A stretch of 64,000 bases of DNA, taken from contig OZ024741.1 of the NCBI GenBank assembly GCA_964016885.1, positions 221,588,001 through 221,652,000 of the forward strand, given 5' to 3'. The DNA comes from Eledone cirrhosa (taxonomy: Eukaryota). The notes beneath the pieces were generated by a model, which made no database searches, was not told where the DNA came from, and worked only from the letters and a program-made list of their open reading frames with translations. Below are positions 46,702 through 52,596 of the stretch, in pieces (within the stretch, counting starts at the first letter, position 1; every line of letters begins with the position of its first letter). Position numbers and translations under genes: made by a program.

Positions 46702-47109
46702 CATTTTCTCCGGAATATAATTTATACTCGTTGAGCAAACCTGCACGTACGCTGTTCATCTCTAACGTAACGATATATTATCACTACATTATTGATAACC
46801 TGAAATTTTACATATATATATATATATATATATATATATATATATATATATATATATATATATATATATATATATATATATTATATATATATATAGATAT
46901 ATTATATATATATATACATATATTATATATATATACATATATTATATATTTATATACATATATTATATATATATATATATATATATATATATATATATAT
47001 ATATATATATATATATATATATATATATATATATATATATATATATATATATATATATATATATTAAGAGAGTAAAACAAAGAAGCCTTCAATACATCAA
47101 AAGAATTTA

Positions 47110-47153
47110 TTAGCCGACAATGTTTCGTCCTATTAAGGACTCATCAGGGCAAT
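47110..47153 (-). ncRNA. Canonical minimal hammerhead in the downstream pLTR
   Basis: GCC-CTGATGA-GTCCT-taat-AGGAC-GAAAC-ATT-GTC-GGC. Confidence 0.92.
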
Positions 47154-48939
47154 TAAAACAACAAGAAGTAATATCGGCAGATACAAGCCGGAAGCTCCGA
47201 AGAATATGGAGTGTACATACACTGAAGTATTACAAAAATATAAAATAAAAATATATGATAAAAATTACTAAGGATGTATATAACATTAAGAACCATATTA
47301 CAAATATAGTCCAAAGCAAAAAAACTAGAGCTAAACAAAGGTGGTTATATAGAGCAGGAATTATATATAATACAATATAATATACTATAATATACCTTTA
47401 CCAACATTAAAATTACAATAAAAATCAAAAGATACAATATGCATATGTATATATGTGCGCACACGTACACACACATACACATACAACAATACACACATCC
47501 ATCTTCAACTGCACAAATTAAACCTTATTAAGAATTTGAATATAAAAATAAGCATGATAGGAATGAAAATAATAATAATAATAATAATAATAATAATACA
47601 TCTACCCAATATACATGAGGTAATAATATGATATAATTATAAGTAGCACATATAATAAATAATAAATAATACAATTATATACTATATAATACAATATAAT
47701 AGAATAGATAATCTCCGGTTAATTTACACAAACAATGTCACAATAATAATATAATAATAATATATTAACATTTACAATATACAATACACTAACATTTATC
47801 ATAAACAATATAAATGTACTCAAGTTAACAAATCAATTCATACTGGGTTACAGAGTAGGTGAGGAAAAATAAATTGTACAATACCTCAAAAAAATGTTGA
47901 TGGTACAGAAGTACAAATATCTTACATGATATATAAAGTTTAACATATCATAATGTTACATATAATTAACGGTAAGTAATAAGGATCAATATTACAATAA
48001 AAAATACAATATAATATAATATATTATATAAAATAAATTAATACAATATAATATATAATTACTTATAATTACAAGGTTGGTAGACAGACATGTATATGGA
48101 TGAGTGAGTAAGTGCCAGACAGTAAATATAATGCACAGTAGTATTACAAATAAAATATAAAATATCAAATATAGAATAAAATAAATAAATAGAATCAACC
48201 GGAAATTAAAAAAACAAAAACAAACGTATACATTTAGGTCTCACATGCAGTTAAGTAGTTAAGTAAAAGCTAAGGAAACAACCCCTGTAAATGACTCGAA
48301 AACCCTATTTGATAAATTAATATTAAAAATATTTAAACTATCCAATAAGGCAGTATAATATTGGCTATAGTTTAAGTCATTAAAGTTTATAAACGTTAAT
48401 ATTTCGTTCCGAAAGTTTACAAAAAGGAATGAAAATTTTTTATTATCATATACATAACGATATCCAAAGAACTGACTTAAGCAGAATTAAGGTAGGCTAA
48501 TAGGGACAGAAATGAAGAAATGTATGGAGGATGCAAAGGGGCATAAAATATAGTCGATATACTATATTACATAATAGAAAGGAGCGTAAAAGAGGGGGGG
48601 TTAAATATAATATAATCATAGTCAATTTGGCGGGGTTGACAATAAGTTTATGTCTGCATGGGGGGGAAAGGGGAGGTGTCCAAAGAAGAATCCGGATAAA
48701 AATAAAAATAAAAATAAGAATAAAATAAAATAAATAGCGTAAAATATATAATCTTATATACATTCATAAGGTGTAACAGTGAAAATTTAATGCGTAAGAA
48801 GATAGATATGGTACAGTAGCCAAAAGATTATGAGAGCTAGAATGAAGAGTCATCAAAAACCAATGATAATAATGATGATAATAATAATGTTGGCAAACAA
48901 AAGGACCTAAACTAAAAAATAAGTAATGGAATATATCAG

Positions 48940-51851: not shown

Positions 51852-51896
51852 TTAGCCGACAATGTTTCGTCCTATTAAGGACTCATCAGGGCAATT
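51852..51896 (-). ncRNA. Canonical minimal hammerhead in the upstream pLTR
   Basis: Identical to 47110-47153. Confidence 0.92.
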
Positions 51897-52409
51897 AAAA
51901 CAACAAGAAGTAATATCGGCAGATACAAGCCGGAAGCTCCGAAGAATATGGAGTGTACATACACTGAAGTATTACAAAAATATAAAATAAAAATATATGA
52001 TAAAAATTACTAAGGATGTATATAACATTAAGAACCATATTACAAATATAGTCCAAAGCAAAAAAACTAGAGCTAAACAAAGGTGGTTATATAGAGCAGG
52101 AATTATATATAATACAATATAATATACTATAATATACCTTTACCAACATTAAAATTACAATAAAAATCAAAAGATACAATATGCATATGTATATATGTGC
52201 GCACACGTACACACACATACACATACAACAATACACACATCCATCTTCAACTGCACAAATTAAACCTTATTAAGAATTTGAATATAAAAATAAGCATGAT
52301 AGGAATGAAAATAATAATAATAATAATAATAATACTAATACATCTACCCAATATACATGAGGTAATAATATGATATAATTATAAGTAGCACATATAATAA
52401 ATAATAAAT

Positions 52410-52596
52410 AATTGTTTCTACTTTTGGCACAAGGCCAGCAATTACCCAGTGTATTACTGGTACTTTATTTTATCGACCCCGTAAGGATGAAAGGCAAAGT
52501 TAACCTCGGCGGGATTTGAACTCAGAATGGCAAGGGCCGTAACTCTATGCGTCAAAGCATGGCGTCCGACCCTCTACCGATACTGCCAATCCACCG
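52410..52596 (-). mobile_element. SINE A
   Basis: Family similarity. Confidence 0.88.

Follow-up and report, generated by a model that had tools for sequence, protein, structure and literature searches.

A large, well-preserved and probably impaired Hydra-clade Penelope-like element of Eledone cirrhosa and the paired insertion ends of its family

The 64,000-nucleotide stretch of the Eledone cirrhosa genome analysed here (GCA_964016885.1, contig OZ024741.1, positions 221,588,001 to 221,652,000; hereafter the window, whose own coordinates are used throughout) contains a Penelope-like element (PLE) at 47063-52412 on the minus strand. As an earlier sequence-only reading of this DNA had proposed, an uninterrupted 895-amino acid ORF, running from the ATG at 51627 to the stop at 48940, specifies a reverse transcriptase (RT) and a GIY-YIG endonuclease; the three catalytic aspartates and all the conserved endonuclease residues are intact in this copy. 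The direct repeats (pLTRs) at 47063-47670 and 51805-52412 align over 608 nt without a gap and with three mismatches (47104/51846, 47105/51847 and 47593/52335), which bears out the claim that they differ at only a few positions, and the alignment equally supports the partial-tandem pLTR architecture of an endonuclease-bearing PLE. The hammerhead cores at 51889 and 47147 define a unit of 4,742 nt, in agreement with the predicted 4.74 kb between the ribozymes, and the downstream pLTR terminates in (TA)n 53 nt past the predicted cleavage at C47116, where about 50 nt past the GUC had been estimated. The upstream pLTR had been thought to continue for some 165 nt; the stretch leading to a short (TA)n is present (this tract sits 154-168 nt beyond the upstream pLTR's end), but it consists of a 101-nt tail and a 76-nt leader and is not pLTR. 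The features are as follows, with the basis of each in brackets.

46812..47062, no strand: (TA)n target microsatellite at the element's 3' end (sequence)
47063..47670, minus: downstream pLTR, ending at family end site A, without the tail, with a private 2-nt change at 47104-47105 (repeat alignment, family ends)
47113..47150, minus: type I hammerhead with minimal palindromic stem III, predicted cleavage after C47116 (sequence and fold)
47671..48939, minus: AT-rich 3' UTR outside the pLTR, 1,269 nt (common to the family)
48940..51627, minus: 895-aa ORF comprising RT, long linker and C-terminal GIY-YIG endonuclease (ORF, model, Pfam)
48943..49422, minus: endonuclease region, aa 736-895, with CxCx5C, VY...YIG, R791, H795, CxxC, E850 and CxH and without a CCHH cysteine pair (alignment, Pfam)
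49750..50175, minus: 142-aa N/S/P-rich linker insertion, aa 485-626, predicted to be disordered and missing from homologues (alignment, model)
50176..51627, minus: telomerase-like RT region, aa 1-484, with RWR, DKT, D266 and YRDD (alignment, model)
50411, minus: private change giving G406 (FLG) (homologue and sister comparison)
51039, minus: private change giving N197 (KDN) (homologue and sister comparison)
51628..51703, minus: 76-nt leader with a short (TA)n (51637-51651) ahead of the ATG (family ends)
51704..51804, minus: 101-nt tail, bounded by the two fixed 3' end sites of the family, A at 51805 and B at 51704 (family ends)
51805..52412, minus: upstream pLTR, the 5'-truncated 3' end of a preceding unit (repeat alignment)
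51855..51892, minus: upstream hammerhead with the same sequence as its downstream counterpart, cleavage predicted after C51858 (sequence and fold)
52413..52597, minus: repeat adjoining the upstream pLTR, presumably SINE-like, with AATAAT on both sides (a possible target duplication) and then (TA)n (sequence)

The leader end (51628-51720, minus strand) reads CTGACAG directly before TATG and so is splice-acceptor-like; a 5' intron is known in Penelope. The repeat at 52413..52597 is, we assume, of the SINE-like kind found in octopus genomes. Two other copies of the PLE family (L068 and L034) are interrupted by sequence resembling it, so that the repeat was likely active after or alongside the family. 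A search of the genome with the repeat gave no match, a result without weight since words that are common are passed over in such searches.

Elsewhere in the window a tandem array of a 31-nt unit in more than 100 copies occupies 6-3500, a 187-nt near-perfect palindrome (93%) lies at 46515-46701, immediately left of the (TA)n tract, and a 381-aa open frame at 36721-37866 (+) resembles the PIF1-type helicase of Helitrons. A canonical-type PLE RT fragment at 27376-28514 (-) matches Pfam RVT_1 (E 6e-7); pairwise comparison of it with the 895-aa protein gave no significant match. Broken copies of other Hydra-like families are found at 18280-18995, 29046-30550, 31549-33817, 42307-44325, 53989-56084 and 59019-60173, with 28-49% protein identity to the element. 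The FLG and KDN of the element had been set against FLD and KDH in the "other copies here"; the motifs are indeed present, but those copies are members of these other families. Upstream of the relic at 53989 is an inverted pair (52765-53061, 79%), each arm of which has a hammerhead-like motif whose core reads CUUUGAGAA/CUUGAGAA, not CUGAUGA. More hammerhead-like cores, several with a long stem II, occur at 31336, 35231, 36499, 44728, 62401 and 63152 (+) and at 40152 (-), and the segment 63134-63204 matches Rfam HH9 below threshold.

Searched as a whole against Pfam, the 895-aa protein matched neither the RT (RVT_1) nor the GIY-YIG domain. Its last 160 residues alone match GIY-YIG (PF01541) with 23 bits, the cut-off being 22.6. 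The AlphaFold model has a mean pLDDT of 83 and its best matches in the PDB are telomerase RTs (TERT; E 1.5e-9); a fold search with the endonuclease alone placed GIY-YIG nucleases near the top, none of them significantly, and a profile search of solved structures found nothing relevant. Motifs were located at KDN (195-197), QYD (266), YRDD (360-363), FLG (404-406) and YIG (780-782). The RWR at 38-40 corresponds to a position occupied by K in 85 and by R in 29 of the 120 aligned homologues (the best 120 of 244 matches), and DKT stands at 129-131 in place of DKG. The cysteine motifs are C746/C748/C754 (CxCx5C), C844/C847 (CxxC) and C872/H874 (CxH). A single, non-conserved cysteine lies between VY and YIG, so the CCHH cysteine pair is absent, and since no cysteine precedes residue 211 there is no CxC. 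The spacing between motifs A and B is 64 aa as against 65, counted by eye, in Hydra-1_Obim, with no insertion in the fingers. The linker is exceptional: residues 492-624 are predicted by the model to be disordered, residues 501-600 have no counterpart in the 120 homologues (best 120 of 244), and the distance from YRDD to FNPP, 278 aa, is the longest among the 152 proteins measured (median 143).

The element had been described as Naiad-type. In the definition given by Craig et al. (2021; PMC8557442), the endonuclease of Naiads is N-terminal, CxC, DKA, CCHH and an insertion in the fingers are present, and a canonical hammerhead is lacking. The Hydra clade is characterized in the same source by a C-terminal endonuclease, by RWK, DKT, CxCx5C and, near the C terminus, CxxC and CxH without a CCHH pair, and by a hammerhead and insertion into (TA)n. 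Here the endonuclease (aa 736-895) is C-terminal to the RT (aa 1-484), a hammerhead lies near the 3' end and the insertion is in (TA)n. The Naiad label can draw on the (TA)n target and the partial-tandem pLTRs, which are common to Naiads and other PLEs (PMC8557442); against it stand the position of the endonuclease, the hammerheads, DKT rather than DKA, the lack of CxC, of the CCHH pair and of an insertion in the fingers, and the 76-nt leader and the tail, which hold no upstream GIY-YIG domain. A C-terminal endonuclease combined with hammerheads is the opposite of the Naiad definition (PMC8557442), and the element is almost certainly not a Naiad. The features of EN+ PLEs are all found: a telomerase-like RT, GIY-YIG in the same ORF, pLTRs, inverted 5'-truncated arms and a tail. 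The element belongs with the Hydra clade of PLEs, assigned by its sequence motifs and not by a tree with named references. Hydra elements are generally short (<3 kb), a trait that is descriptive rather than diagnostic (PMC8557442) and that the 4,742-nt unit does not match. By its sequence the family is a new, large member of the clade, with a 4.74-kb unit, a 142-aa disordered linker and a 101-nt tail.

Sister copies were sought with an 801-nt RT query, and the 40 matches scored are the best 40 of 1,351 candidates, to which all counts of copies, sisters and loci given below refer. Apart from the self match they are 97-99% identical in the RT, and the family thus has at least 40 copies at this level of identity. 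When 10 kb was fetched around each of the other 39 matches (the sisters), an ORF of at least 885 aa was found in six. Three of these (L032, L036, L043) have the full ORF and keep all of the 80 columns that show conservation of 97% or more in homologues and that the family retains; the long ORFs of L033, L046 and L063 have one defect or more each. L032, L036 and L043 are without the long upstream pLTR and none of the 40 copies is flawless; the window copy is among the more complete of them. The 1,269-nt 3' UTR stretch (47671..48939) is covered by a mean of 33 of the 39 sisters. Singletons among the 40 copies have a pN/pS of 0.74, and variants found in at least four copies one of 0.21 (Fisher p 1.6e-8). 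Common variants are, on this sequence evidence, under purifying selection and singletons near neutral, the pattern of an active lineage shedding decaying copies, and the family has been recently active.

The earlier proposal that this copy is probably young holds, given its near-identical family and a private divergence of 0.2-0.5%. With the octopus calibration, in which a Jukes-Cantor distance of 0.09 equals 25 million years (PMC13282606), its age would be roughly 0.5-1.3 million years, if that calibration applies. That it is a candidate autonomous driver does not hold. N197 is found in none of the 39 sisters (38 have KDH), and neither is G406 (35 have FLD), among the best 40 of 1,351; all 120 homologues (best 120 of 244) have H at 197 and D at 406. 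In a wider set of fetched proteins KDHK occurs in 191 of 201, with no N, and FLD-type sequences in 221 of 225, with no G. The sequence-only reading had itself suggested a genome-wide comparison of copies and had named disabling substitutions relative to the family consensus as evidence against its claim; such evidence is now largely in place. The comparison does reveal sisters 97-99% identical in the RT, none with either residue, and the private hits do fall at two invariant positions; from these alignments we infer that H197N and D406G reduce or abolish RT activity. The ORF carries 13 private changes, of which 10 are non-synonymous and 3 synonymous (expected sites 3.7:1), proportions which fit neutral decay with no purifying selection; the 3' UTR carries 6 in 1,877 nt. 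Two hits in the 80 conserved columns from 10 random changes have a probability of 0.22, so that they represent ordinary decay rather than proof of death. Owing to the private 2-nt change in the downstream pLTR (47104-47105), a hairpin predicted ahead of end A is lost (from -6.8 to -1.8 kcal/mol); the structure is weak, with a z-score of -0.5. The nearest sister is 1.32% away and the window copy is a terminal leaf, and no second 100% match to 65-nt windows over 50411 and 51039 was found among the best 40 of 392 and the best 40 of 264 candidates, respectively. No daughter was thus detected; a rare one could be missed by searches scoring the best 40 of 264-1,351.

We therefore regard the copy, with good confidence, as a full-length Hydra-clade insertion in (TA)n whose private mutations include two at invariant residues of the RT, and which is likely to be an impaired daughter rather than the source of the family. 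That it is still competent, tolerating H197N and D406G and acting now or formerly as a minor source element, is unlikely, even though the ORF is uninterrupted, both pLTRs and hammerheads are intact and the catalytic residues are kept. A glycine at this primer-grip position is moreover normal in the RTs of group II introns and LINEs (FLG/YLG), which counts in favour of competence. Weighing against it are the invariance of both residues in the 120 homologues (best 120 of 244), the lack of a daughter among the matches scored (best 40 of 264-1,351 per search) and the absence of purifying selection from the private changes. It is very improbable that the private changes are assembly errors and that the real locus has the family residues. 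The pooled public DNA runs X1, X4 and X8 show only the family letters at 50411 and 51039, but such runs pool all copies, rare variants are lost from their contigs, and no more than 0.53 of the words are present in the best run, which therefore need not derive from the source individual; the runs neither confirm nor deny the private letters of N197 and G406. The ORF, in addition, has no indel relative to most sisters, and its private rate of 4.8 per kb is mid-range for the 40 copies (1.8-10.2).

The copies of the family end at two fixed points, A (51805 in window terms) and B (51704), each running into (TA)n, and loose read ends at 51704 agree with end B. Counted from the hammerhead cut, A is 53 and B 154 nt further on, and insertions never end at the cut itself. 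Among the 39 loci (best 40 of 1,351), 22 have a main arm and an inverted arm that each terminate at A or B, the other 17 being without a visible second arm or a classifiable end. One A and one B end are present in 21 of the 22 two-ended insertions (12 B/A and 9 A/B), with no bias for which arm takes which end (12 vs 9); the probability under independent choice is 1e-5. In the one exception, L053, a piece of tail is found separately, 293 nt further along. The 5' junctions of the two arms are within about 50 nt of each other in 20 of the 22 (the gaps in L038 and L063 are 204 and 466 nt), and for 16 of 23 inverted arms the most similar sequence is the main arm of the same insertion. Rare variants are common to two repeats of one insertion in 9 of 14 upstream pairs and 12 of 23 inverted pairs, a sharing which is compatible with a circle and with a tandem parent alike. 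The two arms of L058 have the same foreign insert, rich in microsatellites, at matching positions (L058:7335-8214 and the inverted arm), and a single altered template was likely the source of both. Each of the ends A and B is preceded by a predicted hairpin and by a similar CU(U/C)C-N4-UUUUA-N-CUU run; a twin-hairpin signal is not established, given the weak z-scores of -0.5 and -1.7 and too little variation among the copies for covariation to show. The tail itself is already in print, and Craig et al. (2021; PMC8557442) state qualitatively that it is often at one end only. We found no published count of the one-of-each pairing, although the older PLE papers (2004-2013) and the supplement of PMC11167929 may hold one.

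The two hammerhead cores are identical over the 38-nt ribozyme, as had been noted; they are canonical only in a restricted sense, being of the minimal metazoan type with a 2-bp stem III and a palindromic loop (ACAUUGU), and both score 31.7 bits (E 6e-4) with Rfam Hammerhead_1, below its gathering score of 34. Read-word depth in run X1 over the hammerhead and tail (51716-51913) is about 20-40x that over the ORF, which suggests very many short copies of the 3' end alone, depth not being equal to copy number; in many reads of this segment the cut triplet is GUU in place of GUC. Main arms run 5' through the hammerhead site in 18 of the 40 copies, the longest of them reaching about 1.8 kb or more beyond the ORF junction, and none of the 40 begins within 10 nt of the site (extents compiled by hand from the coordinates). 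Since main arms cross the site, the template presumably spans it; either a re-ligated circle or an uncut tandem RNA would fit, and the two are indistinguishable here. Cleavage and circularisation of PLE hammerhead RNA have already been proposed (Cervera and de la Pena 2014, PMC4209133). That both hammerheads cut and that the resulting linear 4.74-kb unit RNA is the template for new insertions has only a slight chance of being correct. The two ribozymes are identical, and the double-hammerhead fold is predicted at -21.9 kcal/mol compared with -12.2 for two single active folds, a gain of 9.7, as expected for dimer-type hammerheads with such a short palindromic stem III (PMC4209133), so that a two-pLTR transcript could be cut at both sites. 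Several observations speak against a linear template: insertions terminate 53 or 154 nt past the cut site, the main arms of 18 of the 40 copies (best 40 of 1,351) cross it, and none of the 40 starts within 10 nt of it; for the anole element, PMC11167929 describes continued insertion by hammerhead mutants and the absence of RNA reads ending at the site.

A different scheme follows from the PLE literature. The family's RT-endonuclease would nick (TA)n DNA; reverse transcription would start inside the element RNA at one of two sites, 53 or 154 nt past the cut site, and copying would continue through the ribozyme site into the preceding unit, giving rise to the pLTR. A further suggestion is offered tentatively, at somewhat below even chances: one ribonucleoprotein, probably a protein dimer on one RNA, may prime cDNA from both nicked strands at different fixed start sites 101 nt apart, on a circular or uncut tandem template running through the hammerhead site. 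This suggestion draws on the one-of-each ends in 21 of 22 insertions, the inverted arm being nearest to its own main arm in 16 of 23, and the common insert of L058. If true, paired priming would account in one step for the tails, inverted arms and variable pLTRs of PLEs.

The copy at 47063-52412 appears from its sequence to be real, well-preserved and probably impaired, and as a driver candidate it is of little importance. More can be gained from its family, a recently active and unusually large Hydra-clade element present in many full-length copies that are nearly identical. Its two sharply defined ends, 101 nt apart, provide a clean system for how PLEs make tails, inverted arms and pLTRs, the family could test whether the hammerhead yields a circular template, and the regular pairing of ends makes the question of PLE integration testable.

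Compared with the Hydra clade as described in PMC8557442, Hydra-1_Obim included, the element has the same single ORF with RT and C-terminal GIY-YIG, the same RW(K/R), DKT, CxCx5C, CxxC and CxH, the same absence of CCHH, a type I hammerhead near the 3' end and (TA)n targets, and, compared by eye, each of its RT motifs has an equivalent in the Hydra proteins of the supplement. It differs in its unit of 4,742 nt (1,080-3,045 nt in 27 Hydra entries of File S1), in a 3' UTR of about 1.9 kb which sets it apart from the entries of the clade, and in a tail of 101 rather than 30-40 nt. Its hammerhead stems are unlike those of Hydra-1_Obim, so that it represents a different family. With the Naiad clade (PMC8557442) it shares the PLE type of RT, pLTRs, a (TA)n preference and high copy number in invertebrates. 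The metazoan dimer-type PLE hammerheads and non-LTR retrozymes (PMC4209133; bioRxiv 10.64898/2026.07.22.740005) likewise have a type I hammerhead with a short palindromic stem III in each pLTR; for these cleavage and circularisation have been proposed, while the present element is coding and known from its DNA sequence. A further parallel concerns Poseidon PAc of Anolis carolinensis (Frangieh et al. 2024, PMC11167929), a member of another clade in which the tail lies between two internal RT start sites downstream of the hammerhead, hammerhead cleavage is not needed in vitro, the target is AT-rich, both DNA strands are cut and extended in vitro, and a dimer is predicted. The start sites of PAc lie inside its ORF, whereas the two ends found here are in the 5' leader, and while no strand difference in start site was seen for PAc in that account, one of each is found here in 21 of 22 two-ended insertions.
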